A stretch of 64,000 nt of DNA from an uncultured Acidobacteriota bacterium (GTDB lineage: Bacteria; Acidobacteriota; UBA6911), in the NCBI GenBank assembly GCA_964534795.1, contig CAZHQK010000180.1, forward strand, positions 4,395 to 68,394, read 5' to 3'. The notes under the pieces were generated by a model that saw nothing but the letters and a program-made list of their open reading frames with translations, was not told the origin of the DNA and ran no database searches. The position numbers and the translations under genes were made by a program. How positions within the stretch are numbered: the first letter of the stretch is position 1; the number at the start of each line of letters is the position of its first letter. This document shows, in pieces, positions 17,123 through 40,800 of this stretch.

Positions 17123-18205
17123 CTAGTACTTGATATGCATGGAGCGGGCATAGGTCAATCCCGCGTGCTTGAAATCGTCGATATGATAGCGGGTGAACGG
17201 AATGCCCGTCAGCTGGAAAAAGCGCGGCCAGCCGATGCGCTCGATCCACTCGCCCATGCGCTCGTGCTTGCGGGCGTGCGCGGCGTAAACCTTGACGAGG
17301 TTGACGACCGCCTCGACCACCTCCGGCCAATGGGGCGGATTGTTGGGTATGAAGGGGATCGCCAGTTTCGAGAACTTGGGGGCGCTGCGCGCGTTGCTGA
17401 CCTTGCCCCCGACCCAGATCGACAGCCCGTCGTTGTCGGGATCGTTCAAAGGCATGGCGGGGCATACGGTGTAGCAGTTGGCGCAGAACATGCACTGCGC
17501 CTCCACCACTTCGACGGTCTGCTTGCCGTCGACGGTCTTGGGGCGGATGGCCCCCGTCGGGCATGAGGCGATCAAAGTCGGGATCTCGCAGACCTTGGGC
17601 AGCAGTTCGTGCTGCACCTTGGGCAGCCTGCGGTGCACCCCGAGGATCGCGATGTCGGAGCAGTGGACGGCACCGCACATGTTCAGGCAGCAGGCGAGGG
17701 CGATGCGCAGCTTGGCCGGCAGCTTTTCCTCGGTGAACTGGTCGCACAGGGCATCCATGACGCTCTTGACGATTCCCGAGGCGTCGGTGGCCGAGGAGTG
17801 GCAGTGGATCCAGCCCTGGGTATGCACGATATTGCTGATGGCATTGTTCGTGCCCCCCACCGGGAAGCCCGCGGCCTGGAGTTCCTTCTTCAAGGGCTCG
17901 ATATTCTCTTTCTTGTCCAGCAGGAACTCGACGTTGTTCCGGCTGGTGAAGCGGAGATATCCGCCGCAGTATTTGTCGGCCAGGTCGGCAAAGAACCGCA
18001 TGGTATGGACGCTGAGCAGACGGGGCGATCCCGCGCGGACGCTGTAGATGCGGTCTCCCGACTCGGCGACATGGCACAGGACCCCGGGGGCCACCGACTC
18101 GTGATACTTCCACTGGCCGTAATTCTTCTTGATGATGGGATGAAGGAACTTCTCGTAATGCGGAGGCCCGATATCGGTGATTCTCTTAGCAGGTTGCGTC
18201 GACAT
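17123..18205 (-). CDS. dsrB: dissimilatory sulfite reductase beta subunit
   Basis: 360 aa with the sirohaem/Fe-S Cys motifs ([23 protein letters not shown]) and a ferredoxin insert (CPTGAIRP...[12 protein letters not shown]). Confidence 0.95.
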
Positions 18206-18261: not shown

Positions 18262-19449
18262 CTAGTCTTCATCCTGCTGGAAGAAGATGTAAGGATTGTC
18301 TCTCGGGGCGCTGATCATTTCCGGCTGCGGGTCGAGACCGATGGCGTCGAGGAAATTCGCCATCCCCACCCGCTGGATCAGCTCTCCGATCCTCTCGCGA
18401 TTCATGCCGTGCTCGTCCCAGAACTCCCACACGCGGGAGATGAGCTCCTTCAGGGTCTCCAGCAGTTCCTCCTCCGGCACGAAGGGAATGATGACGGAGG
18501 AAAGCAATGCGCCCTGAACGATCGGCGCCTTGGCCCCGATCAAGACCACGGCGCCTCTTTCCGTGCCCGGGCGCAGGGCCTTGGGCATGAGGTTGATGCA
18601 GTGCATGCAGTGCACGCATTCCCGATTGTCGATCGTGAGCTTTTTGCCGTCCCATTCCATGCACTTGGAGGGGCACAGGTCGCACACCTCCTTCTGGATG
18701 CTCATGGCGGCGGCATACTCGCGCACGGCGTCGTCGTCCTGCCGGATGTCGTCCTTCCATGTGCCGATGACGGAGAGGTCGGCACGCGCGATCGATGCCA
18801 CGCAATCGTTCGGGCACCCGGAGAACTTGAACTTGAACTTGTACGGGAAGGGCGGGCGGTGGAGTTCGTCCTGGTAGGTCTGGGTGATGTCGTAGCAGAC
18901 CTTCAGGGTGTCGTAGCACGCCCACTCGCAACGCGCGGGGCCGACGCAGGCGGACGGCGTGCGCATGCAGGATCCCGAACCGCCCAGATCGAAACCGGCT
19001 TCGGTCAGTTCCTTGAAGCAGGGCTCGAGCTCTTCGGTCTTGGTGCCGAGAAAGATGATATCGCCCGTGGATCCGTGCATGTTGGTCAGGCCGGAGCCGT
19101 GACGCTCCCAGATGCCGGCCAAGGTGCGCAGCGCCTCGCTGGTATAGAACCATCCCGCCGGATGGTTGATGCGCATGGTATGGAAATGGGCCACGTTCGG
19201 GAATTTCTCCGGCACGTCGCTGTAGCGCCCGATGACGCCGCCGCCGTAACCGAGAACGCCCACGATACCGCCGTGTTTCCAGTGCCCGATCTTCTCCTCG
19301 TATGAAAGCTCCAGCTGCCCGAGGAGATCCTGGGTGACGGGATTGGTCGCGGCCGCCTTCTTCATCTCGCGGACGAAGCTCGGCCACGGTCCCGTCTCGA
19401 GCTTGTCGAGAAGCTCGGTCTTGGACTTCTTTTCATCAGCCATTATCAT
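18262..19449 (-). CDS. dsrA: dissimilatory sulfite reductase alpha subunit
   Basis: 395 aa with [31 protein letters not shown] and [14 protein letters not shown], plus the ferredoxin domain CPSKCM...CVHCMHCIN. It is of reductive type, given the linked dsrD. Confidence 0.95.
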
Positions 19450-19556: not shown

Positions 19557-20387
19557 TCACACCGAGTCCCTTCTTTCCTGCCGCGCGGCCGCCGCGCGCC
19601 TTCTTTCCTCCATCACGGCCTTCTTGATCTTCATGGTCTTCTCGCCCAGAAGGCTGAAGCGCAGCCACTGCATGGCCAGCTCCAGCAGATCCTGGTCGTC
19701 CTGGCGCGCCGCCTCGATCCTGGTCTCATCGATCTCGAAGAGCTCGAGGAATCGGGTCTCGAAGACGAACCGGCGAAAGCGGTCCAGGTCGTAGCAAGCC
19801 ATGAAGTACATGTCCATCTGCTGCGGGCCGAGCGGTTCCTCCTTGTCCCAATGCTCATGGAGCATCAGTTCCTTGAACGATGCACCCATCATCTCGTATT
19901 GCTCGATTCCCTGCCGCTGCAGCCACTCGCGGATCGTCGATCCTCCGCCGCGCCCGTGGCCGTGGCACAAATCCTCCCGCAGCATGAAGAAGAAGCGCCT
20001 TTCGTCCGCGTTCGGGTTCTGCGGCTCGGCCATGCCGAGCGGATACATGCGGCACGACCACGGGCGGTGCGCGTAGACGGAACATCCCTCTGCGGTCACG
20101 AACGGGCAGCGTTTGGTCTCCGGGTCCATGCGGATGAGCACCGCAGGGATCTTCTGCTCCGGAGAAAAGGGCGACAGCGTGTATTTCTGCAGGAACTCCG
20201 TCGAATCGATGCCCAGGCAGCGTTTCAGGCGGAGCACGTCGTACGGCGTGAGCACGATGGACACGTCGCGGCAGCATTCATTGAAGCACTCGAGGCCCTT
20301 CTCGCAGGAGAACACGATGCGGTCCTCGAGCCCCAGCCGCGGGTATTCCCGCAGTATCTTTTCCTGGATTGCGCCGCGCTCAGTCAT
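19557..20387 (-). CDS. YkgJ/UPF0153-family putative Zn/Fe-chelating protein (CxxCxxCC)
   Basis: 276 aa with an N-terminal CFNECCRD motif and further Cys ([19 protein letters not shown]). It is co-oriented between aprA and dsrA. Confidence 0.6.
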
Positions 20388-20664
20388 CTCCCTCGCCTTC
20401 GTCGGCCATGATGCCGCTCTTGAGGGCGTCCTTGGACCAGACCGGCAGGGGCCCCATTTCCCCGGTGGTGGGGTCGAGCCTGAGCCTGTAGGAAGCCGTC
20501 ACCTGGAAATGCTCCAGCATCCAGCGCCAGCCGCGCACGAAATAGCCGCACTGGTCGTTGAAGCAGACGTACTGATACTCCCCGCTCCAGCTGCTCAGCT
20601 GGGGGTTGGCCCACCGCACCATGGGCCGCCCGCAGTGGGGGCAAATCGGCGGCGCAGCGGCCAT
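20380..20664 (-). CDS. small zinc-ribbon protein (94 aa)
   Basis: Two CxxC/CxxxxC pairs ([15 protein letters not shown]), an acidic tail and a GGAGG RBS. It overlaps the ykgJ-like start by 8 nt. Confidence 0.45.
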
Positions 20665-20727: not shown

Positions 20728-22662
20728 CTAGCCTCCCAGGAGCTCGTGCTCCTTGGGCTGCGCGAACACATAGCGTACCGGCCGCGCAAAGACCTCCCAC
20801 TGGTCGGTCTTGGGATCGTACTTGCAGTTGGCGAACACGCGCCACTTTTCCTCGTCGAGCTTCGGGCGATCGGCGCGGAAGTAATAGCCCGGCCAGCGCG
20901 TCTCCTCGCGGAAGAGCATGGTCCGGACATGGGCTTCCGCCTGCCACATGCGATGCACGTTCTCCCAGCAACGCATGAGCTCGTGCAGGTTGGCGGCCGC
21001 CAGCTTGGTCGAATCCTCCTTGAGGAGGGCGATCAATTCGAGAGCCCTCTTCAGGAGCGCCTCGTTGGTGGTGAACTGCGCGCTGATGCCGCCCGCGTAC
21101 TCATCCATGATCTTCTGCAGGCGGAACATGAACATGCGCGGCTTGATGTAGTTGGGATTGATCTCGGGATCGGTGGTCTCGCCCATGTGCTTCTGGTAGG
21201 TCTCCAGAGGCTGCAGGATCTCGACCATCTTGCGATTGATGGTCTCGTCGTCCACCTTGGGCATCGTGTTGTTCTCCACGATGAATTTGATGGCCGACTT
21301 GGCCGCGATCCGGCCCTCGGTGCACGAGCCCGAGGAGAACTTGTGGCTCGAGGCCCCCGAGGCGTCGCCCGCGCAGAAGAGCCCCTTGACCGTGGCCATG
21401 TTGGCATAGCCCCAGAAGTACTCGCCGCGGGTCTCGTCGCTCTGCAAATCCTCGGGACCGCTCACCCAGGCGCCGCTGGCTCCCGAGTGCGATCCGATGA
21501 AGTACGGCTCGGCCGCAGCGATCTCGGAACTCTTCACCTCGGGCTCCACGTTGGTGGCCGCCCACAGGATGGCCTGGGAGATGGTCATGTCAAGAAAGTC
21601 TTCCCAAGCCTCGGACTCGAGTTCCTTCATCTTTTTCTTGTAGGCCTTGGGGTCGTCCTTGTAGGCATCGGCGATGGCCTGGATGGCTTCCTCGGTTCTC
21701 ATGTAGATGGGCCCCTTGCCCTCCATGATATCGAGCATGCCCAGGTAATTGCGCAGGTTGGCGGGGATCGGCTTCACCCGGCCGTAAGGCCCCCACTTCT
21801 CGAGCTCGGCCTTGCGCTCCACCATGTAATCGCCGCCCTGCGAGTTGGTGGCCCGGGACTTGAAGAGCAGGAACCACGCACCCACCGGCCCGTAGGCATC
21901 CTTGAAGCGCACGGGAATGAAACGCACTTCCTGGCAGGTCATCTCGGCACCCGCCTGGATGGTGAAATAGGCCGAAGAACCGGAATTCCAGGGTGGATAC
22001 CACGCGCGGCCCACGCCCTCGCCCGAGCTCCTCGGCTTGAAGACGTGCACGGCACCGCCCATGGCCACCAGGGTGGCCTTCGCCTTGAAGACGTAAAACT
22101 TGTTTTCGCGCACCGAAAAGCCCACGGCCCCGGCGCAGCGATCGCCGTCCATGAGCGGACCGACGATGAAGACGCGCTCGAAGATCTGCCCGACGCCGGA
22201 CTGGAGCAGGGCGTTCTTGGCCGCCTCGGCCACGACGACCTTGTACGACTCGCCGTTGATCATCAGCTGCCAGCGGCCCTCGTGGACGTAAGCGCCGTTC
22301 TCGTCTTTCCAGATGGGGAGTCCCCATTTTTCGAATAGATGAACGGTCGAATCGACGTGACGGGCGATGTTGGCCACCAGGTCCTCGCGCGTGATGCCCA
22401 TCAGGTCGTTGCGCACGTAGTCGACATAGTCCTTTACCGTGTTCGTGCCGTCGCACAGGCCGACGTACTGGTTGATGGCCGAGAGGCCCATCGCCACGGC
22501 TCCGGAACGGTCGACCGCCGCCTTGTCGACCAGGGTCACCTTCAGGCCGTTCTGCTTGGCCCAATACGCCGCCTCGACCGCGGCGCCGCAGGCGGCCATG
22601 CCGCCGCCCAGAATCAACAGATCAGTTTCCACCACGACTTTTTCGAAATCGGCCATGTTCAT
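20728..22662 (-). CDS. aprA: adenylylsulfate (APS) reductase alpha subunit
   Basis: 644 aa with an FAD-binding N-terminus (LILGGGMAACGAAVEAAYW) and AprA-specific blocks (YFTIQAGAEMT, WGYANMATVKGLFCAGDASGAS). Confidence 0.95.
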   Translation of the reverse strand: MNMADFEKVVVETDLLILGGGMAACGAAVEAAYWAKQNGLKVTLVDKAAVDRSGAVAMGLSAINQYVGLCDGTNTVKDYVDYVRNDLMGITREDLVANIARHVDSTVHLFEKWGLPIWKDENGAYVHEGRWQLMINGESYKVVVAEAAKNALLQSGVGQIFERVFIVGPLMDGDRCAGAVGFSVRENKFYVFKAKATLVAMGGAVHVFKPRSSGEGVGRAWYPPWNSGSSAYFTIQAGAEMTCQEVRFIPVRFKDAYGPVGAWFLLFKSRATNSQGGDYMVERKAELEKWGPYGRVKPIPANLRNYLGMLDIMEGKGPIYMRTEEAIQAIADAYKDDPKAYKKKMKELESEAWEDFLDMTISQAILWAATNVEPEVKSSEIAAAEPYFIGSHSGASGAWVSGPEDLQSDETRGEYFWGYANMATVKGLFCAGDASGASSHKFSSGSCTEGRIAAKSAIKFIVENNTMPKVDDETINRKMVEILQPLETYQKHMGETTDPEINPNYIKPRMFMFRLQKIMDEYAGGISAQFTTNEALLKRALELIALLKEDSTKLAAANLHELMRCWENVHRMWQAEAHVRTMLFREETRWPGYYFRADRPKLDEEKWRVFANCKYDPKTDQWEVFARPVRYVFAQPKEHELLGG

Positions 22663-22669
22663 CCCTCCT

Positions 22670-23116
22670 CTACTCGCACGACTTCAATGTGAACAATTTG
22701 TTCAAGCGGTTGGACGCCGGCTCGGTGAAGAGGTTGGGGCTGTTCAGATCGCCGACCGTCGGGAACCCGCCATCCGGCACCGCCTGTCCCTCGGGGGTCG
22801 TGCGGATGGGGAACTTGAAGCGCTTCAGTGTACCGTTGCGGAATTTCACGGTCCACATGATCGAATCGGTTGAACGCAGGGGCGTAACGGATGCCCCCAT
22901 CGGGACGAAGTCGGCGTAGCCGCGGATCTCGATGGCCTGGGTAGGGCAGATCTTCACGCAGTTGAAGCACTCCCAGCACATCATGACGTCGCGGTTGTAC
23001 GCCTTCATCTTCTCCCGGTCCAGGACCATGAGGTCGTTGGGGCAAATGTACTGGCAAGCGGTCTTGTCCAGCGCCTTGCACCCATCGCATTTTTCGATAT
23101 TGACGTAACTCGGCAT
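22670..23116 (-). CDS. aprB: APS reductase beta subunit (2x[4Fe-4S])
   Basis: 148 aa, MPSYVNIEKCDGCKALDKTACQYICPNDLM...CWECFNCVKICPTQAI. This is the classic AprB. Confidence 0.95.
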   Translation of the reverse strand: MPSYVNIEKCDGCKALDKTACQYICPNDLMVLDREKMKAYNRDVMMCWECFNCVKICPTQAIEIRGYADFVPMGASVTPLRSTDSIMWTVKFRNGTLKRFKFPIRTTPEGQAVPDGGFPTVGDLNSPNLFTEPASNRLNKLFTLKSCE

Positions 23117-23133
23117 GACGCTACCTTTCTGGT

Positions 23134-23739
23134 TCAGAACCGCCCGCCGGGGGAAACGAGCGGTTCCAGCTTGTCGGACTTATGACGACGGTAGAAACAC
23201 TCCCGCCGGCTGAGTTCCCCGAACCTGCAATTTTCGCGATAAGAAATCCCGCATTGCAGGCATACCTCATCCGGCCGGGAGCCGTGTTGGACGATCGATG
23301 CAGCCAGACGGTCCAGAAGCTCGGCCGCCCTCTGCAGCTCACCCGGATCGAACCGGCCCAACACCTCGGCCGCCTTGCGGTGCCTGGCCTCCTCGAAGGA
23401 CCGAAGCAGCGCGCGGCTTTCGTCGGTGAGACGGAAGCAGCTGCTGCGCCGATCCTCGGCCCTCTCGGCACGTGTCAGCAGCCGGCGCCGTACCAGCTTC
23501 TCGACCGTCTTGCTGGCGGCGGCGTCGCTGACCCCGAGGAAATCCGCTGCATCGCCGACCGTGTGTTCGCCGGTCGCTGAACCGAAAAACAGCAGCTTGA
23601 GATGAGAAAAACTCAGCGATTCGTCCGCGCTCTCCCGCAGGATCTCCTGCTCGAAAGCGCGGCGGATCGCTGCGGCGAAGACGTGCGCACTGCCCAGAAA
23701 ATCCGTCCGAACCTCGGCACTCCTCGCCTCGCAAGCCAT
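23134..23739 (-). CDS. MarR-family transcriptional regulator with a Cys-rich C-terminal extension, lead gene before aprBA
   Basis: ATG at 23737-23739 with GGAGGAAG upstream. The wHTH region runs LSFSHLKLLFFGSATGEHTVGDAADFLGVSDAAASKTVEKLVRRRLLTR. The C-terminus is ..CLQCGISYRENCRFGELSRRECFYRRH. It lies 17 bp upstream of aprB on the same strand. Confidence 0.6.
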   Translation of the reverse strand: MACEARSAEVRTDFLGSAHVFAAAIRRAFEQEILRESADESLSFSHLKLLFFGSATGEHTVGDAADFLGVSDAAASKTVEKLVRRRLLTRAERAEDRRSSCFRLTDESRALLRSFEEARHRKAAEVLGRFDPGELQRAAELLDRLAASIVQHGSRPDEVCLQCGISYRENCRFGELSRRECFYRRHKSDKLEPLVSPGGRF

Positions 23740-24081
23740 TGAACTTCCTCCATCCCTAAAGCGGGATGAAATCCGGACCCAGACCAACGGCTGGCGTCCG
23801 TCGTTTAACCCTGTCGAATTTAAACTCGATTTAGTCCTCATGCAAGAGTTTTTTTCGAAAATATGGCCAGATCTGGCAGGAAATTATTGTCAAAAGATAT
23901 TAAATCAGCACAAGCACCCGGCCATTTCGGCGATTTGAAAAAGATCGGCGACGCCGAACAGCCGACGGCAGGAAAGACTTCCCATGGCTGGGCCGCGACC
24001 CTCGATCCGGGATCGGAAGTCTCATTTGGCTCACTCTGAGACCGATTTGCCCTGCATTGCTCGGCGATAGGCCGCGTTTGC

Positions 24082-24150
24082 TGCAAAAAAAAATTTAAAT
24101 ATGATGACAAGCCGGTCAATTGCGTTTATTATTAACCGCCGAAAGGATCC
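24082..24150 (+). promoter_or_regulatory. conserved 69-nt upstream element, copy 1 (qmoABC leader)
   Basis: Ungapped 48/69 identity to 36638..36706. The core GCGTTTATTATTAACCG(C/G)CGAAA(G/A)GATCC matches at 27/29. GATGACAA is shared 14 nt upstream. A GC hairpin (cccgcc-tgaaggtcc-ggcggg) follows directly. Confidence 0.55.
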
Positions 24151-24608
24151 CGCCTGAAGGTCCGGCGGGAACCTGTGAGCAGGACTGGTTCCTGAAGTGC
24201 TCCGGCCCGGGTCGAGTCGGAGAGCGGAGGCAGCGAGGTCATCATCATCGATTCGGCAAGCTATGAAAACGGCCCGTGATCGCCATCATCGCATTACCCG
24301 TCATGGCGGACCCCGCGACACATCCCCTCGACTCCTCCCCCGTCGGCCCGGGGCAGCGCTGCGGCCTGTTCCTGCGATAGAGAAAGGCAGGTGTACGACG
24401 CTCGCCCCGAGCTCGGAGCCGCGGCGCTCCGGGCTCGTCGCGCGATGACAGGCGCAGGCACCGGCTGAGCCGGCCGACGTGCCCGGCAACCCGGTCTCGA
24501 GGCTACCGACGCCTTCGCATCGGGCCGGCGGCCGGACGCTCCCGCCGGGCGCGAGACAAGCCGGGGCCGAAGCCATCGACCAGAAGTCATATTCGCGAGA
24601 GACACAAT

Positions 24609-25868
24609 ATGAATGCCAAAGCAAAACCCATTCTAGTAATCGGCGGGGGCATAGCCGGGATGACGGCGGCGGTCGAAGCCGCCGAGGTAGGGTATCCCGT
24701 CGTCCTCGTGGAAAAGGAAGCGTATCTGGGAGGACGCGTAATGCGCACCTACCGCTACTTCCCGAAGATGTGTCCCCCGACCTGCGGCTTCGAAATCAAC
24801 GTGCGCCGGATCCGGCAGAATCCCAGAATCACGGTCCACACGCTTGCGACCGTGGAGGAGATCACCGGCCGCGCGGGTGCTTTCCGCGCCAGAATCAGGA
24901 AGCGCCCCCGATACGTGACCGGCCGGGAACCGCTGAGCGATTCCCTGGCGCAACAGCTGACCTCCGAGCGTCCCGACGACTTCAACCTGGGCATGGGCCG
25001 GACCAAGGCACTCTATCTGCCGCACGCAATGGCCTACCCGCCGCAGTATGTGCTGGACCGGGACGCCCTCTCCGCAGCCGACGCCGAAATCCTCAGGAAA
25101 AACGCCGCCGGGGCCGTCGATCTCGACATGGCCGAAGAGGAGCTGCTGGTCGAGGCGGGCACCGTCATCATCGCCACCGGATGGCGCCCGTATGACGCCG
25201 CCAAGCTCGACCATCTGGGCTTCGGAAAATGCCGCAACGTCATCACCAATGTCATGATGGAACGGCTGGCGGCGCCCGGCGGGCCGACGGGCGGAGAGAT
25301 CCTGCGGCCCTCCGACGGCAGGAAAGCGGAGAACGTGGCCTTCGTCCAATGCGCCGGTTCGCGCGACGAGAACCATCTTCCCTACTGCTCGGCCGTCTGC
25401 TGCATGGCTTCGCTCAAGCAGGCCAGGTACCTGAGGGAAAAGAACGCGAACGCCAAGGCGACCATCTTCTACATCGATATCCGCGCCGTGGGCCGCCTCG
25501 AGAAGTTTTATTACGACATGCTCGAGGATGCCAACGTCACCTATGTCAAGGGAAAGGTGGCCGGAATCAGCGAAGAACCCGGAAGCGGCAACCTGATCCT
25601 GGACGTGGAGGACACGCTGGCCGGCAGAAAGCAGCATCGCGGATTCGATCTTGCGGTCCTGGCGACCGGCATGGTGCCCAATACCGCCGATGCCGGCCTG
25701 CCCCTGCAGCTCCAATGCGACGACTACGGTTTCATCGACGGCACCACGGACATCGAGGGCGTGTATGCGGCCGGCTGTGTCAAGCGCCCGTGCGACGTTG
25801 CGCGTACGACCAAGGACGCCACCGCGGCTGCGTTGAAGGCCATCCAGTGCCTTCAGAGGGGAGAATGA
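24609..25868 (+). CDS. qmoA: QmoA (HdrA-like FAD flavoprotein)
   Basis: 419 aa with an FAD Rossmann start (ILVIGGGIAGMTAAVEAAE) and the HdrA-like Cys cluster (CAGSRDENHLPYCSAVCC). Confidence 0.9.
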   Translation: MNAKAKPILVIGGGIAGMTAAVEAAEVGYPVVLVEKEAYLGGRVMRTYRYFPKMCPPTCGFEINVRRIRQNPRITVHTLATVEEITGRAGAFRARIRKRPRYVTGREPLSDSLAQQLTSERPDDFNLGMGRTKALYLPHAMAYPPQYVLDRDALSAADAEILRKNAAGAVDLDMAEEELLVEAGTVIIATGWRPYDAAKLDHLGFGKCRNVITNVMMERLAAPGGPTGGEILRPSDGRKAENVAFVQCAGSRDENHLPYCSAVCCMASLKQARYLREKNANAKATIFYIDIRAVGRLEKFYYDMLEDANVTYVKGKVAGISEEPGSGNLILDVEDTLAGRKQHRGFDLAVLATGMVPNTADAGLPLQLQCDDYGFIDGTTDIEGVYAAGCVKRPCDVARTTKDATAAALKAIQCLQRGE

Positions 25869-28197: not shown

Positions 28198-29469
28198 ATG
28201 ACAGTGGAAAGTGCCGTCAAGCGGGAAAGCGGCGCAGGAATGCCGGTGCCTGCGGCGCCGGGGCCCGGGCTTTCCGGCGACACGCGACCGGTGCGCATCG
28301 AACCGGACCTGGAGTTCATCCGTGCGCTTATCAGCGGGGGGGCGGACACGGTCAAGAAGTGTTTCCAGTGCGGAACGTGCTCGGCGACCTGCACCCTTTC
28401 GCCCGATCCCGAGCCGTTTCCGCGCAAGGAAATGGCCTGGGCGCTGTGGGGCTGGAAGGACCGGCTGGTGCGCGATCCCGATGTCTGGCTGTGCCACCAG
28501 TGCCAGGACTGCTCCGTTCGCTGCCCGCGGGGCGCGCGGCCGGGTGACGTGCTGGCGGCGGTGCGCCAGGAATGCGTCGCGCACTATGCCTTCCCCCGTT
28601 TCCTGGCGCGCTGGATGAGCCGGCCGCAGTACGTCCCCCTGCTCCTGGCCATCCCCATAGCACTTCTGACCTTGGCCCTGCTGCTGCGGGATACGCTCGC
28701 GGCCGCCCTGGGTTTCTCACCTCAACCGGGGGCGCGCATCATCTATGCCTACTCGAGCGTCTTCCCGCACTGGCTGCTGAACGGCTTCTTCGGTCTCTTC
28801 AGCCTGCTGGCATTGCTCGCCATGCTGGTGAGCGCCCGGCGCTTCTGGCGGGCTCTCGAAGAAGCGGATCGCATGCCGCGCATCCGGGGGCTTGCCGCCA
28901 GCACCTGGGCGGCGCTGCGCAGCATCGCCACGCACAGGAATTTCGACCTGTGCACGGCGGCGCGGCCGCGCTACCTTTCCCATCTCTGCGTGCTCGCCGG
29001 TTTCGTAGCCCTGACGCTGGTCACGCTATGGGTGATCACCGCCGAATACAACCCCCTGATCCGCTCCGACTTCGTCTATCCTTTCGGCTTCTGGAATCCG
29101 TGGAAGATGCTGGCCAACGTGGGCGGAATCGCCGTGCTGGCCGGCTGCCTGCTCATGGCCTGGGAGCGCCTGCGCGAGGGCGGCTCGATGGGCATCGGGG
29201 CCTATTTCGACTGGGTGCTGCTCGCCGACCTGTTTCTGGTCGTCGCCACGGGATTCGCCACCGAGGTGCTGCACTACCTGCGCCTGGAACCCCACCGACA
29301 TATCGCCTACTTCACGCACCTGGTCTTCGTCTTCACGCTGCTGATCTACCTGCCCTATTCGAAACTGGCCCACCTGGTCTACCGCGCCCTGGCCATGATC
29401 CATGCCGACCGCATCGGGCGCATCCTGGGAAGCGCCCCGACTCCGGGCGCTGAAAGGACGGGGCGGTGA
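28198..29469 (+). CDS. qmoC: QmoC (HdrC-like Fe-S domain fused to an HdrE/NarI-like cytochrome b membrane domain)
   Basis: 423 aa with an N-terminal CFQCGTCSATC...CHQCQDCSVRCPRG, then 5-6 TM helices. Confidence 0.85.
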   Translation: MTVESAVKRESGAGMPVPAAPGPGLSGDTRPVRIEPDLEFIRALISGGADTVKKCFQCGTCSATCTLSPDPEPFPRKEMAWALWGWKDRLVRDPDVWLCHQCQDCSVRCPRGARPGDVLAAVRQECVAHYAFPRFLARWMSRPQYVPLLLAIPIALLTLALLLRDTLAAALGFSPQPGARIIYAYSSVFPHWLLNGFFGLFSLLALLAMLVSARRFWRALEEADRMPRIRGLAASTWAALRSIATHRNFDLCTAARPRYLSHLCVLAGFVALTLVTLWVITAEYNPLIRSDFVYPFGFWNPWKMLANVGGIAVLAGCLLMAWERLREGGSMGIGAYFDWVLLADLFLVVATGFATEVLHYLRLEPHRHIAYFTHLVFVFTLLIYLPYSKLAHLVYRALAMIHADRIGRILGSAPTPGAERTGR

Positions 29470-29486
29470 CCCCGAAGGAGAAAACC

Positions 29487-29855
29487 ATGAACGAAACGCC
29501 GCAAAGTTCGCGCAGTGTTCTTTTCCTGGCCGTCCCGGCGCTGATCCTGCTGCTGCCTTTCGCCTACAGCCTGGTCGCCTACGTGGCCGGCGCGGACACC
29601 GCCGCCGCCCGGCCCTTCCTCGAAAAGCCCGATCCCAAGTATCGGAACTGCGTGCGCGAAACCGCCTACATGCGTTTCCATCACTGGGAGCTGCTCAGAA
29701 CGGTGCGCGAGGAGGTGGTGCGCCAGGGGAAGCCGAGCGAGACGGGCCTGAAGCAATGCAAGAATTGTCACACGAGCAGGGAGCGCTTCTGCAATCAGTG
29801 CCACAACGCGGTCACTCTGAACCCCGACTGTTTCGGATGCCATTACTATCCGTGA
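29487..29855 (+). CDS. DsrJ-like membrane-anchored triheme cytochrome c (paralog)
   Basis: ATG at 29487 with AAGGAGA upstream, and an N-terminal TM anchor. It has three CxxCH (CKNCH, CNQCH, CFGCH) and aligns with DsrJ, including the extra Cys (RNCVRETAYM vs GTCVAPTDYM). Its start is 18 nt after the qmoC stop. Confidence 0.75.
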   Translation: MNETPQSSRSVLFLAVPALILLLPFAYSLVAYVAGADTAAARPFLEKPDPKYRNCVRETAYMRFHHWELLRTVREEVVRQGKPSETGLKQCKNCHTSRERFCNQCHNAVTLNPDCFGCHYYP

Positions 29856-29907
29856 GCACGCAGCCGGCGGTCGGCAAATGCAAGCAGCCTTGGAGGGTCG
29901 AGCGAAA

Positions 29908-30633
29908 ATGGACAGAAGAGAATTTCTGACGGCCGGCGGGGGCCTCCTGTTGGCGGGCGCCGCCGGCACCTATGCGGTACGGTTGCTCACGCAGGCCGGG
30001 GCCGTCGAAGCGGTCACGGCAGGGCGGCACAGGTGGGGCATGGTAGTCGACCTGCGCAAGTGCCGACCGGACTGCACGGCGTGCCTGGAGGCCTGCAGGC
30101 TGGAAAACAACACGGCTTCCGTCGGCGACGCGCGCTGGGACGTGCATTGGATCCGCAAGGTCCATGTCAAGCCGAAGAACGGCGGGGCCGAGCGCTCCGT
30201 GGTGCTCCTGTGCAACCATTGCGACCATCCGCCGTGCGCCCAGGTGTGCCCCGTGCAGGCCACTTACAAGCGTGCGGACGGCATCGTCATCGTGGACCAT
30301 CACCGCTGCATCGGGTGCCGCTACTGCATGATCGCCTGCCCCTACAACGCCCGCTACTTCAATTTCAAGGAAAGCGAGGAGTGGCCCAACAAGGAGTTCC
30401 CCAAACGCTCGCACGGCGTCGCGGAAAGCTGCACGCTGTGCGCCCATCTCCTCGACGTCGGCAAGAAACCGGCGTGCGTCCAGGCCTGCGAGCGCGCACA
30501 GGCCGGAGCGCTCGTCGTGGGCGACCTGAACGATCCGCAGAGCGAGATTTCCAGGTTGGTTTCCGAGAATTCCGTCAAACGGCTCAGGGAGGATCTGGGC
30601 ACGGAGCCCAAGGTTTACTACATCGGATTATGA
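29908..30633 (+). CDS. DsrO-like Tat-exported 4Fe-4S ferredoxin subunit (NrfC/PsrB family)
   Basis: Tat signal MDRREFLTAGGGLLLAGAAG, a GGAGGG RBS and four ferredoxin-type Cys clusters. Confidence 0.8.
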   Translation: MDRREFLTAGGGLLLAGAAGTYAVRLLTQAGAVEAVTAGRHRWGMVVDLRKCRPDCTACLEACRLENNTASVGDARWDVHWIRKVHVKPKNGGAERSVVLLCNHCDHPPCAQVCPVQATYKRADGIVIVDHHRCIGCRYCMIACPYNARYFNFKESEEWPNKEFPKRSHGVAESCTLCAHLLDVGKKPACVQACERAQAGALVVGDLNDPQSEISRLVSENSVKRLREDLGTEPKVYYIGL

Positions 30634-36637: not shown

Positions 36638-36706
36638 TGCAGAATTTTAATTAAAGGCGATGACAACGGCAGCTCCAGCGTTTATTATTAACCGGCGAAA
36701 AGATCC
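36638..36706 (+). promoter_or_regulatory. conserved 69-nt upstream element, copy 2 (sat leader, about 118 nt before the ATG)
   Basis: The core GCGTTTATTATTAACCGGCGAAAAGATCC lies at 36678..36706. It is followed by the hairpin gatccag-ggggat-ctggatc. Confidence 0.55.
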
Positions 36707-36823
36707 AGGGGGATCTGGATCGCGCTCAGGTTGAGAACGGTCATGATTTGGGACTTCAGATTGATCATTTCGGCGAGGCGATTCACGTGCCGCTTTCGCC
36801 CTTGATACGCAAGGAGGACCTCG

Positions 36824-38092
36824 ATGAGCAAATTGGTACCCCCGCATGGCAGCCCGACGCTGAAACCCTTGCTTCTCGGACAGGAGGAGGCCAAGGAAGA
36901 GCTCAAGAAGGCGCAGACGCTCAAGAAAGTGCCCATGTCGACGCGCGAGACGAGCGACCTCATCATGATGGGGATCGGCGCGTTCACGCCGCTCGACGGT
37001 TTCATGGGGCGAGCCGACTGGCAGGGATGCTGCGACACCTATACCATGCCGAGCAAGAACAATCTTTTCTGGCCTATTCCCATAACCCTATCGGCGGCCC
37101 AGGATCTGGCGGATTCCATCAAGATCGGCGAGGAAGTCGCCCTTTGGGATCTCGAAACCGAGGCCGTCATGGGAACCATGAAGGTCGTCGAAAAGTACAC
37201 CATCGACAAGGAGCATGAGTGCCGGCAGATCTTCAGGACGACCGACCCGGCGCATCCCGGCGTCGAGAAGGTGATGCAGCAGGGGCCGGTAAACCTGGCC
37301 GGACCGGTCAAGGTCATCTCCGAGTCCTACTACCCGGAAATGTTCCGCGGCATCTACCAGCGCCCGGCCGAGGCGCGCAAGGTTTTCGAGGAGCGCGGGT
37401 GGAGCACCGTGGCCGCGCTGCAGCTGCGCAATCCCATGCACTCGTCCCATGCCTACCTGGCCTGGATCGCCATCGAAGTGTGCGACGGCGTTTATATCCA
37501 CCAGCTGGTGGGCAAGCTCAAGCCCGGCGACATCCCGGCCGACGTGCGCGTGAAGGCGATCGACGTGCTGGTCAACAAGTACTTCCGCAAGGACCGCGTC
37601 GTTCAGGGCGGCTATCCCATGGAGATGCGCTATGCCGGCCCGCGCGAGGCCCTGCTGCATGCGGTCTTCCGCCAGAACTACGGCTGCTCCCATCTCATCG
37701 TCGGCCGGGATCACGCGGGGGTCGGCGACTACTACGGCCCGTTCGACGCCCAGAAGATATTCAACGAGATCCCGCAGAACGCGCTGGTCTTGCGCCCGCT
37801 CTGCATGGACTGGACATTCTACTGCTACGAATGCAAGAGCATGGCCTCGATGAAGACCTGCCCGCACGAAAGCAAGGCGGTGATCGACGAAAACGGCGTC
37901 TACAAGGGCGGCGCCAGGCTCCTGCTTTCCGGAACCCTGCTGCGCAAGCTCATGAGCGAGGGGAAACCCGTGCCGCCCGAGTTTTCCAAGCCCGAGGTGA
38001 TCGCCGTGCTCAAGGAGTACTACGACAAGCTCGAGCAGAAGGTGGATATCAAGCTGCACGGATTCGCCACGGGTGAGAAAAAGAGTTCCTAG
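36824..38092 (+). CDS. sat: sulfate adenylyltransferase (ATP sulfurylase)
   Basis: 422 aa with [18 protein letters not shown] and a PUA-like N-terminus. A GGAGGA RBS is present. Confidence 0.95.
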
Positions 38093-38257
38093 CCTGCCGC
38101 CCGATCTGCATGGCCGTGCCCGGGCTCTCTTCGAGCCCCAGGCTGCCGACGAGGTCGCAGAGGCGCTGCGCGCCCGCCGTTCCGGCGGCGGGCGCACCGC
38201 CGCCTGCCGGCGGAACCATTCCGTCGGAGCGGCCGTGCCCCGGAGAAAGGAAGCCCG

Positions 38258-39193
38258 ATGACCGCTGCTCTCTATCTGTTTCTCTACGCGATGATCCTGG
38301 TGTTCGCCGCCGGATGCGCCGTCAGAATCTACCGCTACGCGACCGCCCCGATGCACCTGCGCTGGGAGCTCTATCCCGTCCCCCACGAAGAGCCTCACCG
38401 GGTGCGACACGGCGGGTCCTACTTCGAAGCGCCGGATTGGTGGACGCGTCCCGTCCATTTCAACCTCGCAGGCGAACTCAAGTTCATGATCCCCGAGATG
38501 ATCTTTCTCAAGGGACTCTGGGAGTTCAACCGGCCGATGTGGCGGCGCTCCTTCCCCTTCCACTTCGGACTGTACCTGCTCATCGGTACCGCAGCCCTGG
38601 CGGCGGTGGCGGCGGTGCTCGACCTGATCGCCGCGGGGACTTCGAGCACGGGCCTGGGCTGGGCGATCGCCCGGCTCTATACGGTCACCGGACTCGCCGG
38701 AGCGATCCTGTGCGTCGTCGGAGCTCTGGGCCTGTTGCACCGGCGCCTGACCGACCCGAAACTGCGGCTCTATACAACCCCGGGAGACATATTCAATCTG
38801 GTCTTCTTCGTGGTCGCCGTCGCGCTGCTCTTCGCCGGCTTCGCCTTCGGCGGGCCGGACACTCCCGGGCCGGCTGCGATCGTGCGCGGGCTCGTCCGTT
38901 TCGACACCGGTCTCGAGATCCCGGCCACGCTCGCCGTCGGGCTGGCCCTCGCCGGGCTGCTGATCGCCTACATCCCGATGACGCACATGTCCCACTTTAT
39001 CGCGAAGTGGTTCACCTACCACGAAATCCGCTGGGACGACCAGCCGATCGCGCGCAGCCGCAGGCTGGCGCGCAAGCTCGCCGAGCAGCTCGCCTACCGG
39101 CCCACCTGGGCCGCCGCGCACGTAGGGGCCGACGGCAGCAAGACGTGGGCGGACGTCGCGACCACCAATCCGGCTCAAGGAGCGAAGCGATGA
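38258..39193 (+). CDS. DsrM/HdrE-like (NarI-type) membrane cytochrome b, paralog
   Basis: 311 aa with 5 TM helices and His residues positioned as in DsrM/HmeC. Its stop overlaps the next gene's start (ATGA). Confidence 0.75.
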   Translation: MTAALYLFLYAMILVFAAGCAVRIYRYATAPMHLRWELYPVPHEEPHRVRHGGSYFEAPDWWTRPVHFNLAGELKFMIPEMIFLKGLWEFNRPMWRRSFPFHFGLYLLIGTAALAAVAAVLDLIAAGTSSTGLGWAIARLYTVTGLAGAILCVVGALGLLHRRLTDPKLRLYTTPGDIFNLVFFVVAVALLFAGFAFGGPDTPGPAAIVRGLVRFDTGLEIPATLAVGLALAGLLIAYIPMTHMSHFIAKWFTYHEIRWDDQPIARSRRLARKLAEQLAYRPTWAAAHVGADGSKTWADVATTNPAQGAKR

Positions 39194-40800
39194 AGGACAA
39201 GAAGATCGATCTCAAAGACATGTCCCGGACGGAGCGCGAGCCGCTCGTCCATCTGGAGGACGGCGACCTGATGCCCTTGCCGGTTCCCTCAGCCGATGTG
39301 GTGACGGAACGCCGGTGGACGCCTCTTTCCGAGCAGATCCGGGAAAAGTACGAATGCATCCTCGACGACACCTGCGCGGTGAACGTCCCCCGGCCGCAGT
39401 CCAAGGAAGAGGAAGAGGAGCTGGTGCGCAAGTTTCTGTCCGGACTCGACAAGCTCTTCTCCAAGGAAAACAACTGGACCTTCCTGCTGCCGCTCGTGCT
39501 CACCATGGAGCATTGCGCCAAGTGCCAGACCTGCTCGGAAGCCTGCCATATCTACGAAGCCAGCGGCCGCAACGAGCTTTACCGGCCCACCTTCCGCTCC
39601 GAGATCATGCGCCGGCTTTACTACAAGTACGTCAAGCACGGGGGCCTGCTTTCGGCATGGCAGCACGGCGACATCGAGGTCAACTGGCCCCTGGTCGCCA
39701 GGCTGATCGAACTCTCCTACCGCTGCAATCTCTGCCGGCGCTGCGCGCAGACATGCCCCATCGGGGCCGACAACGGCCTCGTGGCCCATGAGCTCAGGAA
39801 GCTCTTCAGCCAGGAGATGGGGATCGCCGCCAAGGAGATTCACGATTCCGGCTCCATGCTTCAACTCAAGGTGGGCTCCTCCACCGGGATGAATGCCCTG
39901 GTGGTCAAGGACAATATCGAGTTCATCGACGAGGACATGTCGGAAAAGACCGGGATCAAGGTCGAGACCCCGTGGGATGTCGAAGGGGCCGACGTCCTGC
40001 TGATTCACAACGCCGGCGAGATCCTGGCGTGGCCGGAGAACCCCGGTGCCTTCGCCGTCATCCTGAACGCCGCGGGCATCAAATGGACCCTGTCGTCCGA
40101 GCTGGCGGGCTACGATTCGATCAACTACGGCGTGTGGTACGACGACGCCCAGTTCGCGCGCGTGGCGCTCAAGCACGCCGAGGCCGCCAGGAAGCTGAAG
40201 GTCAAGAAGATAGTCCTGGGCGAGTGCGGCCACGCGCACAAGTCGCTCTCGGTCATCGCCGACCGCGTCCTCGACGGCGAGTACAACATACCGCGCGAAA
40301 GCTCCATGACCCTGCTGCACGACATCGTGATGAACGGCCGCATCAAGCTGGATCCCTCGAGGAACGATTTCCCCGTCACGCTCCACGACCCCTGCAATCT
40401 CGTGCGTCTCATGGGCGTCGTCGAGCCGCAGCGCGAGATCCTGCGCAAGATCTGCCCGAAGTTCCGCGAAATGGAACCCCACGGCGTGGACAATTACTGC
40501 TGCGGCGGCGGCAGCGGCTTCGCCATCATGAGCCCCAACAATTTCTCCGACTGGCGCTTCCGCGTCGCGGGTCGGAAGAAAATGGAGCAGATCCTGAACG
40601 CGTTCGCGGACTGCCTCGACCCCTCGATCCCCAAGTACCTGTGCGCTCCCTGCAGCAACTGCAAGGGGCAGTTCCGCGACATGTTGGCCTACTATGACAT
40701 GTGGGAAAAGTATCGCATACTGTACGGCGGCCTGGTGGAGCTGATCGTCAACGCCATGGTCGACGTCAAGCCCGGATTCATCGAATGGGAGTGGCATTGA
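39190..40800 (+). CDS. DsrK/HdrD-like Fe-S protein with two CCG domains, paralog
   Basis: ATG at 39190 (MKDKKIDLKDMS...). It has CAKCQTCSEACH, CNLCRRCAQTCP, LHDPCNLVRLMG and YCCGGGSGF. The track ORF 38110..40800 is an upstream artefact extension. Confidence 0.85.
   Translation: MKDKKIDLKDMSRTEREPLVHLEDGDLMPLPVPSADVVTERRWTPLSEQIREKYECILDDTCAVNVPRPQSKEEEEELVRKFLSGLDKLFSKENNWTFLLPLVLTMEHCAKCQTCSEACHIYEASGRNELYRPTFRSEIMRRLYYKYVKHGGLLSAWQHGDIEVNWPLVARLIELSYRCNLCRRCAQTCPIGADNGLVAHELRKLFSQEMGIAAKEIHDSGSMLQLKVGSSTGMNALVVKDNIEFIDEDMSEKTGIKVETPWDVEGADVLLIHNAGEILAWPENPGAFAVILNAAGIKWTLSSELAGYDSINYGVWYDDAQFARVALKHAEAARKLKVKKIVLGECGHAHKSLSVIADRVLDGEYNIPRESSMTLLHDIVMNGRIKLDPSRNDFPVTLHDPCNLVRLMGVVEPQREILRKICPKFREMEPHGVDNYCCGGGSGFAIMSPNNFSDWRFRVAGRKKMEQILNAFADCLDPSIPKYLCAPCSNCKGQFRDMLAYYDMWEKYRILYGGLVELIVNAMVDVKPGFIEWEWH

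Follow-up and report, generated by a model that had tools for sequence, protein, structure and literature searches.

SoxR, a regulator of the MerR family, senses redox through a short C-terminal stretch, right after the dimerization helix, in which four cysteines hold a [2Fe-2S] cluster. ArnR of Corynebacterium glutamicum, which regulates narKGHJI and hmp, belongs to the winged helix-turn-helix (wHTH) regulators; it holds a [4Fe-4S] cluster by Cys ligands and governs an operon for anaerobic respiration (PMC12343034). FabT is a MarR repressor encoded by the first gene of its own fatty-acid synthesis operon (PMC13046290), and in Desulfovibrio the regulators Rex and HcpR have been assigned to sat, apr and qmo (PMC4045070, PMC1274295). 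The subject of this study is marR-C4, a gene in a 64,000-nucleotide stretch (hereafter, the window) of contig CAZHQK010000180.1 from an uncultured Acidobacteriota bacterium (assembly GCA_964534795.1). It encodes a 201-residue MarR-family regulator with a C-terminal tail bearing four cysteines (the Cys4 tail), and it stands immediately ahead of aprBA, the genes for adenosine 5'-phosphosulfate (APS) reductase. Acidobacteriota that reduce sulfate abound in wetlands, peatlands among them. One of these organisms has been shown to alternate between respiring sulfate and oxygen (PMC10564751), and to our knowledge no regulator has been named for its switch. Our comparative sequence analyses indicated that MarR-C4 represents a genuine MarR subfamily, which is strongly conserved and carries a new Cys4 module, and that within Acidobacteriota its apr-linked members form a clade dedicated to aprBA. 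For the oxygen switch of acidobacterial sulfate respiration MarR-C4 thus offers a concrete candidate, comprising a defined protein, a candidate 43-bp DNA target and four cysteines.

MarR-C4 resembles described members of the MarR family (PF01047/PF12802; e.g., ST1710, YusO, Rv1404, SlyA/RovA and MexR) in its wHTH signature and its predicted fold and, putatively, in a palindromic element in its own promoter region. It differs from them in the ~50 additional C-terminal residues with four invariant cysteines, and no equivalog model was reached. SoxR has a comparable C-terminal Cys4 stretch on a dimeric DNA-binding protein, but it belongs to the MerR family, has CX2CXCX5C spacing, activates transcription via DNA distortion and shows no homology to MarR-C4. 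The closest functional analogue is ArnR, in which a MarR/ArsR-like wHTH domain is joined to a C-terminal, Cys-ligated sensory region that gates an anaerobic respiration operon (PMC12343034). However, no sequence similarity between ArnR and the MarR-C4 tail was detected, and the cluster that has been demonstrated for ArnR is only proposed for MarR-C4. FabT of streptococci and enterococci provides a precedent for the genetic design, being a MarR-family repressor encoded first in its own operon, although its effector is acyl-acyl carrier protein, it has no Cys tail, and the NCBIfam FabT model, with its cutoff of 200 bits, gave MarR-C4 a score of just 20.8. The likeness to Rex and HcpR, which are redox- or nitrogen-oxide-responsive regulators of dissimilatory sulfate-reduction genes, is functional only: these proteins belong to unrelated families (Rex is NADH-sensing and HcpR is of the CRP/FNR type), lack a Cys4 tail and do not have their genes at the head of aprBA. 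Among MarR proteins whose DNA binding is set by Cys oxidation or by metal (OhrR/MgrA/SarZ and AdcR/ZitR), the conserved N-terminal Cys of the OhrR type is absent from MarR-C4, and AdcR/ZitR bind Zn at core His/Glu sites, with MarR-C4 falling far below the AdcR cutoff. A literature search turned up no description of the MarR-C4 family.

The marR-C4 gene occupies positions 23134..23739 on the minus strand, as assigned from the open reading frame (ORF) and its translation together with Pfam, AlphaFold and Foldseek analyses. Its ATG start codon at 23739 has the sequence GGAGGA (23746-23751) 6 nt upstream. The TGA stop codon (23134-23136) is separated from the aprB ATG (23114-23116), on the same strand, by exactly 17 nt (ACCAGAAAGGTAGCGTC; 23117..23133, minus strand), a spacer that includes a GAAAGG ribosome-binding site and is too short to hold a terminator. 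The equivalent gaps in relatives were 17 nt (locus L084), 14 nt (L081) and 19 nt (L087). The two genes that follow encode the beta subunit of APS reductase (aprB, 22670..23116, minus strand; TIGR02060, 204.8 bits versus a cutoff of 135.65) and the alpha subunit (aprA, 20728..22662, minus strand; TIGR02061, 902.6 bits versus a cutoff of 641.75). A 235-residue version of the marR ORF, from an ATG at 23841, was judged unlikely and rejected, because the homologues begin at the 201-residue position and that ATG lies inside the conserved -35-like hexamer described below. A terminator-like hairpin within marR (23248-23260) was also rejected, as such hairpins were at chance level (two found versus 2.5 expected). 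An Rfam scan of positions 22500-25000 at E ≤ 1 returned zero matches, so no known leader RNA is present there.

The pairing of marR-C4 with aprB proved to be a recurrent feature of acidobacterial genomes. A species scan, in which each species was represented by one genome, identified 80 MarR-C4 loci, all of them in Acidobacteriota, with hosts in Bryobacterales, Terriglobia, Solibacteraceae, Ca. Sulfopaludibacter and SbA3 (of Hausmann et al.). At 38 of the 80 loci aprB was directly downstream of marR on the same strand, and L044 was added as a 39th on inspection; at one locus (L060) marR was followed by dsrA/dsrAB rather than aprB. Where the two genes were adjacent, in genomes and in metagenome contigs, they were on the same strand with gaps of 14-207 nt. 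The commonest order in relatives, with all genes on one strand, was marR-aprB-aprA-ogr-ykgJ-qmoA-qmoB-(qmoC)-dsrA-dsrB. In the window, and likewise in L084, a relative nearly identical to it, the order is marR-aprBA-ogr-ykgJ-dsrAB, with a qmoABC-cytochrome-FeS-NrfD set inverted upstream, and in L087 only marR-aprBA-ogr are still together, with qmo and dsr elsewhere. The retention of marR-aprBA in L087 and other rearranged relatives showed the marR-aprB junction to be the constant feature. All apr-linked MarR-C4 proteins grouped into a single clade in a neighbor-joining tree; the window protein branches deepest in this clade, and the one dsrA-linked copy is nested inside it. Members of this clade are as little as 45% identical, yet the adjacency to aprB has been kept, and this orthologue clade is strictly syntenic with aprB.

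These results bear on an earlier note on the window, which had been made from the letters of the sequence and described marR-C4 as the leader gene of aprBA with its stop 17 bp ahead of aprB on the same strand. The spacing agrees with the coordinates, and the leader-gene assignment is borne out by adjacency in the genomes of ~40 acidobacterial species and on 11 contigs from metagenomes. The pairing, whose loss beside apr in relatives the note had named as counter-evidence, instead recurs in other genomes. Its suggestion of a regulator dedicated to APS reductase is well supported by the comparative evidence, since all of the apr-linked copies form one clade and the adjacency is recurrent.

The reverse test started from aprB. 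It covered 80 metagenome aprB loci, those with the greatest similarity to the window AprB, and 63 of these were informative. Eleven of the 63 had marR directly upstream, all with the Cys motif, and 52 had at least 650 nt of upstream sequence but no marR. The idea that marR-C4 is a universal partner of aprBA was therefore rejected, and the regulator is a lineage-specific addition. Twenty of the marR-less aprB contigs were inspected and found to range from 32 to 70% G+C, with varied upstream genes, so that several phyla are probably represented.

Analyses of the MarR-C4 protein placed its core securely within the MarR family. Pfam models of the MarR clan matched above their cutoffs within residues 43-107 (MarR_2, 38.4 bits versus a cutoff of 27; MarR, 25.6 versus 24.6; HTH_27, 33.5 versus 22.2). 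These matches, at residues 43-99 and 63-107, delimit a wHTH DNA-binding domain encoded at 23419..23613 on the minus strand. The recognition helix (AAASKxVxKLVRR) and the DRR of the wing are nearly invariant in all MarR-C4 paralogues, and the invariant columns of the wHTH domain are D63, A65, F67, L68, A74, A75, K81-R85, L88, R90 and D96-R98. An AlphaFold model built on 32 homologues had a predicted local distance difference test (pLDDT) score of 79.6 overall and 85-93 in the core, with helices at residues 2-37, 44-55, 61-68, 72-84, 106-127 and 132-151 and strands at 88-93 and 96-104. The 50 top Foldseek matches of this model in the PDB were all MarR proteins, with target TM-scores of up to 0.85, and the best PDB matches by sequence and by structure were likewise MarR proteins, with ~140 residues aligned. 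MarR-C4 is accordingly modeled with a MarR fold, and the MarR-type wHTH regulator proposed in the earlier note stands. None of the NCBIfam equivalog models was reached (best scores: SlyA, 30.8 bits versus 120; AdcR, NF038251, 30.2 versus 175; FabT as above). The Pfam and NCBIfam searches gave MarR-clan domains only, with neither the NADH-binding Rossmann domain of Rex nor a CRP/FNR domain.

The feature that sets the subfamily apart is the tail. MarR-C4 extends ~50 residues beyond the MarR core, and the core of this extension (residues 160-186, encoded at 23182..23262 on the minus strand) reads C160-L-Q-C163-G-x6-C171-x9-C181-F-Y-R-R-H186, that is, CxxC-x7-C-x9-C followed by FY-RRH. The tail is rich in Arg, Tyr and Phe and has a net positive charge. 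Each of the four cysteines is kept in 79-81 of 81 MarR-C4 proteins that are 41-97% identical, the two exceptions being broken by contig ends. His186 is conserved in 52 of 79. A homology search with MarR-C4 found 589 homologues of ~200 residues, and among the 120 listed all have the pattern C-x2-C-x7-C-x9(-11)-C. Beyond the tail no cysteine is conserved: the positions of C3 and C101 (window protein) are variable among the homologues, and no OhrR-type N-terminal Cys is present. The four-cysteine tail of the earlier note holds, and the lack of Cys conservation that the note had named as counter-evidence was not observed, the cysteines being invariant in the complete sequences among ~200 homologues; its spacing of x8 after CLQCG was a miscount for x7, and its inclusion of the His as a motif residue does not hold across the family.

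Searches with the tail found it in no other setting. A tail-only profile run against 1.84 billion protein representatives matched 78 cluster representatives, which by length and match position were either short fragments or full-length proteins of ~180-270 residues whose tail falls around residues 135-215. Thirty-one of the weaker matches were read, and 29 of these, including the weakest, were MarR-plus-tail proteins with all four cysteines, with the other two being spurious repeat proteins. The Cys4 module thus appears confined to this architecture and, on these searches, appears to be a new module so far found only in this MarR subfamily. None of the Pfam or NCBIfam models covers the tail, with matches falling in the MarR core only; the tail profile found zero PDB chains at E ≤ 10, and none of the MarR structures in the PDB extends over it. 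The same searches (Pfam, NCBIfam and the PDB tail profile) gave no homology to the domains of known Fe-S regulators (FNR, Rrf2/IscR/NsrR, WhiB, SoxR, SufR and ArnR). In number, C160, C163, C171 and C181 agree with the three or four invariant candidate ligands expected of an Fe-S regulator. The zinc ribbon that the earlier note had raised as a question was not borne out: a zinc ribbon or Zn(Cys)4 finger has two CxxC (or CxxH) knuckles or matches a zinc-finger model, whereas the tail has a single CxxC knuckle, its other two cysteines stand alone at spacings of 7 and 9 residues, and neither Pfam nor the PDB gave a match.

Paralogues of the apr-linked protein carry the same tail and sort by gene context into separate clades. 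MarR-C4 genes were found as the first gene of an hdrC-hdrB-hdrA-mvhD-mvhG-mvhA-hycI cluster (L083 8859-16613), as the last gene after mvhG-mvhA-hycI (L021 6857-10630), as the first gene of an operon for a DUF362 protein, a membrane polyferredoxin and a DUF6599 protein (L008 9878-14288), and 1.1 kb upstream, on the same strand, of an HdrD-like/electron transfer flavoprotein/HdrA cluster. All of these contexts are oxygen-sensitive, Fe-S-rich anaerobic redox modules. The Hdr-linked paralogues have a conserved promoter-proximal element of their own (TTAGTAAA...cTTGACAGTTAA...TATACTAA). As the same tail is found on the Hdr-Mvh hydrogenase and polyferredoxin paralogues, the signal it receives is unlikely to be specific to apr, which argues against sulfite or APS. 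Judged from these sequences, a general redox, oxygen or metal-cofactor signal probably fits the tail better than an apr-specific metabolite. Separately, locus L034 (9333-10573) has two tandem MarR-C4 genes directly after the gene for a NiFe-hydrogenase maturation protease.

To locate where MarR-C4 might act, we compared the regions upstream of the apr-linked genes. The only alignable block upstream of the diverged loci consists of cTTGCa, 17 nt and TAAATT, inside TTRAYCAG-GTTTAAATTC-GAnnTGGTYAAAC; it is conserved where the upstream regions are otherwise unalignable. In the window this block (23803..23845, minus strand, 64-106 nt before the marR start) is a candidate marR-aprBA promoter with an overlapping dyad. 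The promoter parts are a -35-like TTGCAT (23840-23845), a 17-nt spacer and a -10-like TAAATT (23817-23822), and the dyad is an imperfect 33-bp palindrome (23803-23835, 64-96 nt upstream of the marR start) centered in GTTTAAATTC and the -10-like box. The block is unique in the window, where 0 chance matches are expected, and it holds ten invariant bases. Counted at no more than one mismatch, the GTTTAAATTC element was present in the dsrA-linked L060 and in 21 of the 47 genome loci linked to apr, with L001 giving a further match that is doubtful and out of position, and it was found in none of 41 other paralogue loci and none of 62 aprB loci without marR. The dyad is specific to its register, with 72.9% of cells paired versus 14-50% when it was slid by 1-3 nt. 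Its position and co-occurrence with the gene suggest that the block is the MarR-C4 operator. An exact palindrome, GTTTAA-N9-13-TTAAAC, that had been considered as the operator was confined to the window's own clade and was replaced by the broader GTTTAAATTC-centered element. A second copy of the candidate operator was looked for near qmoA and elsewhere in the window, and none was found.

A physiological context for this locus is available from a related organism. Locus L056 is contig NODE_20 of the metagenome-assembled genome CO124, in which marR ends ~18 nt before aprB by tblastn coordinates. CO124 switches between sulfate and O2 respiration, and in air the majority of its genes for sulfate reduction are silent (PMC10564751). 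In the published data its aprBA genes are ~70-fold more highly expressed under anoxia. Its aprB gave 3.8, 0, 0 and 4.4 reads per kilobase per million mapped reads under oxic conditions versus 57, 63, 51 and 55 under anoxic conditions, and aprA and the Ogr-like gene respond to anoxia much as aprB does (PMC10564751). The MarR-C4 regulator does not appear in the published CO124 sulfur gene list (PMC10564751), and in their study of peatland genomes Hausmann et al. drew the syntenic genes of these sulfur clusters, which may include marR-C4, simply as conserved genes whose function is unknown (PMC6018796).

On balance, we lean toward the reading that MarR-C4 is an operon-dedicated, probably autoregulated repressor of the acidobacterial APS-reductase cluster, and that its Cys4 tail, probably as a metal or Fe-S center, senses redox or oxygen. 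A MarR-C4 dimer would bind the conserved dyad, overlapping the -10-like box and the likely transcription start, and so shut off marR-aprBA. The four cysteines would ligate a metal center, the main candidates being a redox-labile Zn(Cys)4 site and an Fe-S cluster, and the state of this center would report oxygen or cellular redox, such that the repressor would keep the operon off in air and let go under anoxia. As both would be made from one transcript, the level of the repressor would track those of the enzyme. The paralogues, with the same tail and other promoter elements, may do likewise for the Hdr-Mvh [NiFe]-hydrogenase and DUF362/polyferredoxin operons, in which case the MarR-C4 family would supply facultatively anaerobic Acidobacteriota with anaerobic switches that are each specific to one module. 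The paralogue set thereby predicts other operons under like control, including that of the Hdr-Mvh hydrogenase. If the tail does bind an Fe-S cluster, it would be a new MarR-family sensor module and an independent solution to the oxygen control of anaerobic respiration. We offer only tentatively, and consider rather doubtful, the stronger proposal that MarR-C4 would be the first regulator of the MarR family to sense through an Fe-S (or redox-labile Cys4-metal) site and the direct oxygen/redox switch by which facultatively anaerobic Acidobacteriota alternate between dissimilatory sulfate reduction and aerobic respiration, with its paralogues a phylum-specific set, covering APS reductase/Dsr, the Hdr-Mvh hydrogenase and the polyferredoxin complex, that is functionally analogous to FNR or ArnR and evolved independently.

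Several observations weigh against the repressor reading. The 52 marR-less metagenome loci mean that most aprBA loci of other lineages do without the regulator, and the GTTTAAATTC element is recognizable in only about half of the apr-linked loci, so that it could be a lineage-specific promoter. Only one dyad position covaries cleanly (G-C in seven sequences versus A-T in six), and covariation was not above that of shuffles (of 500, the count was 75 for the cells that changed on both sides and 154 for the covariation score), which makes the covariation support for the dyad weak. The half-sites lie ~22 bp apart, center to center, and typical MarR operators are narrower than this. Repression, as opposed to activation, is deduced only from the position of the dyad. 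The tail matched no known Fe-S or Zn motif, and its pLDDT was low, at ~68 in the full model and 52.9 when it was folded alone. The marR-less aprBA loci and the weak covariation would also suit the view that marR-C4 merely neighbors aprBA, either controlling other genes or being an activator or a global regulator, and that the upstream element is the strong promoter of a highly expressed operon, whose -35-like and -10-like boxes would be conserved anyway. We regard this as improbable, since the adjacency has been kept in a clade down to 45% identity and through rearrangement of the surroundings, each paralogue clade is bound to its own operon, the ten invariant bases and the register-specific dyad go beyond what a -10 box needs, and the element is missing from the 62 aprB loci that lack marR.

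The other alternatives accept that MarR-C4 regulates aprBA and differ in what the tail does. It could be a purely structural Zn(Cys)4 knuckle, serving dimer stability or an extra DNA contact that would explain the long dyad, with the signal being a small molecule in the MarR pocket between the dimerization and wHTH domains that differs by paralogue and for the apr clade would be APS, sulfite or a related compound. The CxxC(G/E) knuckle, the positive charge and the many Arg, Tyr and Phe residues of the tail suit such a role, a structural site would show Cys invariance across paralogues with different targets, the conserved element is ~33 bp long, and a repressor encoded by the first gene is typical of ligand-titrated designs such as FabT (PMC13046290). 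However, there is only one CxxC knuckle, the zinc-ribbon and zinc-finger families gave no match, and the model for the Zn-dependent MarR protein AdcR reached ~30 bits against its 175-bit cutoff. Moreover, every known context is an oxygen-sensitive anaerobic module, for which one shared redox signal accounts more economically than a number of unrelated ligands would, and the operon responds in vivo to the shift between oxic and anoxic conditions; we therefore judge a structural tail unlikely. Cys-based redox sensing is common in the MarR family, and the tail might alternatively be a metal-free thiol switch that senses reactive sulfur species (persulfide or polysulfide) or oxidants via di- or polysulfide bridges, as in CstR, SqrR, BigR and OhrR-type regulators, coupling apr to the sulfur state of the cell. 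The target operon belongs to sulfur metabolism, and a coenzyme A (CoA)-disulfide-reductase/rhodanese fusion gene is near marR in L084 and L087. Against this, known persulfide sensors use two cysteines, whereas four invariant cysteines at fixed spacing are the signature of a metal site; the OhrR-type N-terminal reactive Cys is absent, with C3 and C101 not conserved; and the same tail occurs at hydrogenase/Hdr and polyferredoxin operons with no obvious sulfur link. A thiol switch accordingly seems to us very unlikely.

In addition to aprBA, the earlier note had suggested that MarR-C4 may control the divergent qmo genes, and this found no support. The intergenic region between marR and qmoA is 869 nt long (23740-24608), and the only operator-like dyad in the window is ~770 nt from qmoA. 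The divergent arrangement is peculiar to the lineage of the window; in most relatives qmo is downstream on the same strand. A promoter scan identified a sigma-70-like ATGACA-17-TATTAT facing qmoA in an AT-rich island. This promoter-like element (24103..24174, plus strand) consists of GATGACAA-N13-GCGTTTATTATTAACCG followed by a hairpin at 24144-24174, and BLAST and alignment revealed a second copy of ~48 nt at 36659-36706 (36659-36720 with its hairpin), upstream of the ATP sulfurylase gene sat (36824-38092). The element common to qmoA and sat is GATGACAA-N13-GCGTTTATTATTAACCGnCGAAArGATCC, the hairpins after the two copies differ in sequence, and the marR dyad is not part of it. It looks like a common promoter with a 5' stem-loop for sulfate-reduction genes that, from its sequence, would be distinct from the marR-aprBA promoter. 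With nothing linking MarR-C4 to qmoABC, shared control of qmo is unsupported. The position of the element implies a qmoA leader of ~470 nt.

Other features of the qmo and sat regions were observed. In the window (29466-30633), qmoC is followed by a gene for a 129-residue protein with CxxCH motifs and no Pfam match and then by one for a Fer4_11 iron-sulfur protein; in relatives, an NrfD-type membrane protein comes after the Fer4_11 gene. This Qmo-associated membrane module is inverted relative to aprBA in the window and co-oriented with it in L081 (4992-7480), where a response regulator gene and a histidine kinase gene separate the module from marR. Directly after sat, the window has a gene (38110-40800) for an 896-residue HdrD-like protein with Fer4_8 and CCG domains.

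Downstream of aprA, the same-strand cluster of the window continues with an Ogr/Delta-like zinc-finger gene (20380-20664, minus strand; PF04606, 46.4 bits) and a CxxCxxCC/YkgJ-type gene (19557-20387, minus strand; PF03692, 39.4 bits). Its downstream end is formed by dsrA (18262-19449, minus strand) and dsrB (17123-18205, minus strand), which were assigned from full-length matches of 78-82% identity, a range that covers both genes, at the dsrA/dsrB positions of related loci, and from NIR_SIR Pfam matches of the equivalent genes in L081 and L084. On the upstream side of some related loci there is a gene for a CoA-disulfide-reductase-like flavoprotein fused to a rhodanese domain, which may act in the handling of sulfur or persulfide. 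In L087 (2395-4050) and L088 (696-2351) this gene is immediately upstream of marR-aprBA; in L084 (166-1818) the same fusion lies beyond the inverted qmo set. The Ogr-like gene followed aprA in 29 of the 32 metagenome aprBA loci with enough flanking sequence, nearly always together with the YkgJ-like gene. This ogr-ykgJ pair is also present on low-G+C contigs (L133, 43%; L137, 32%) and is far more widely spread than marR-C4.

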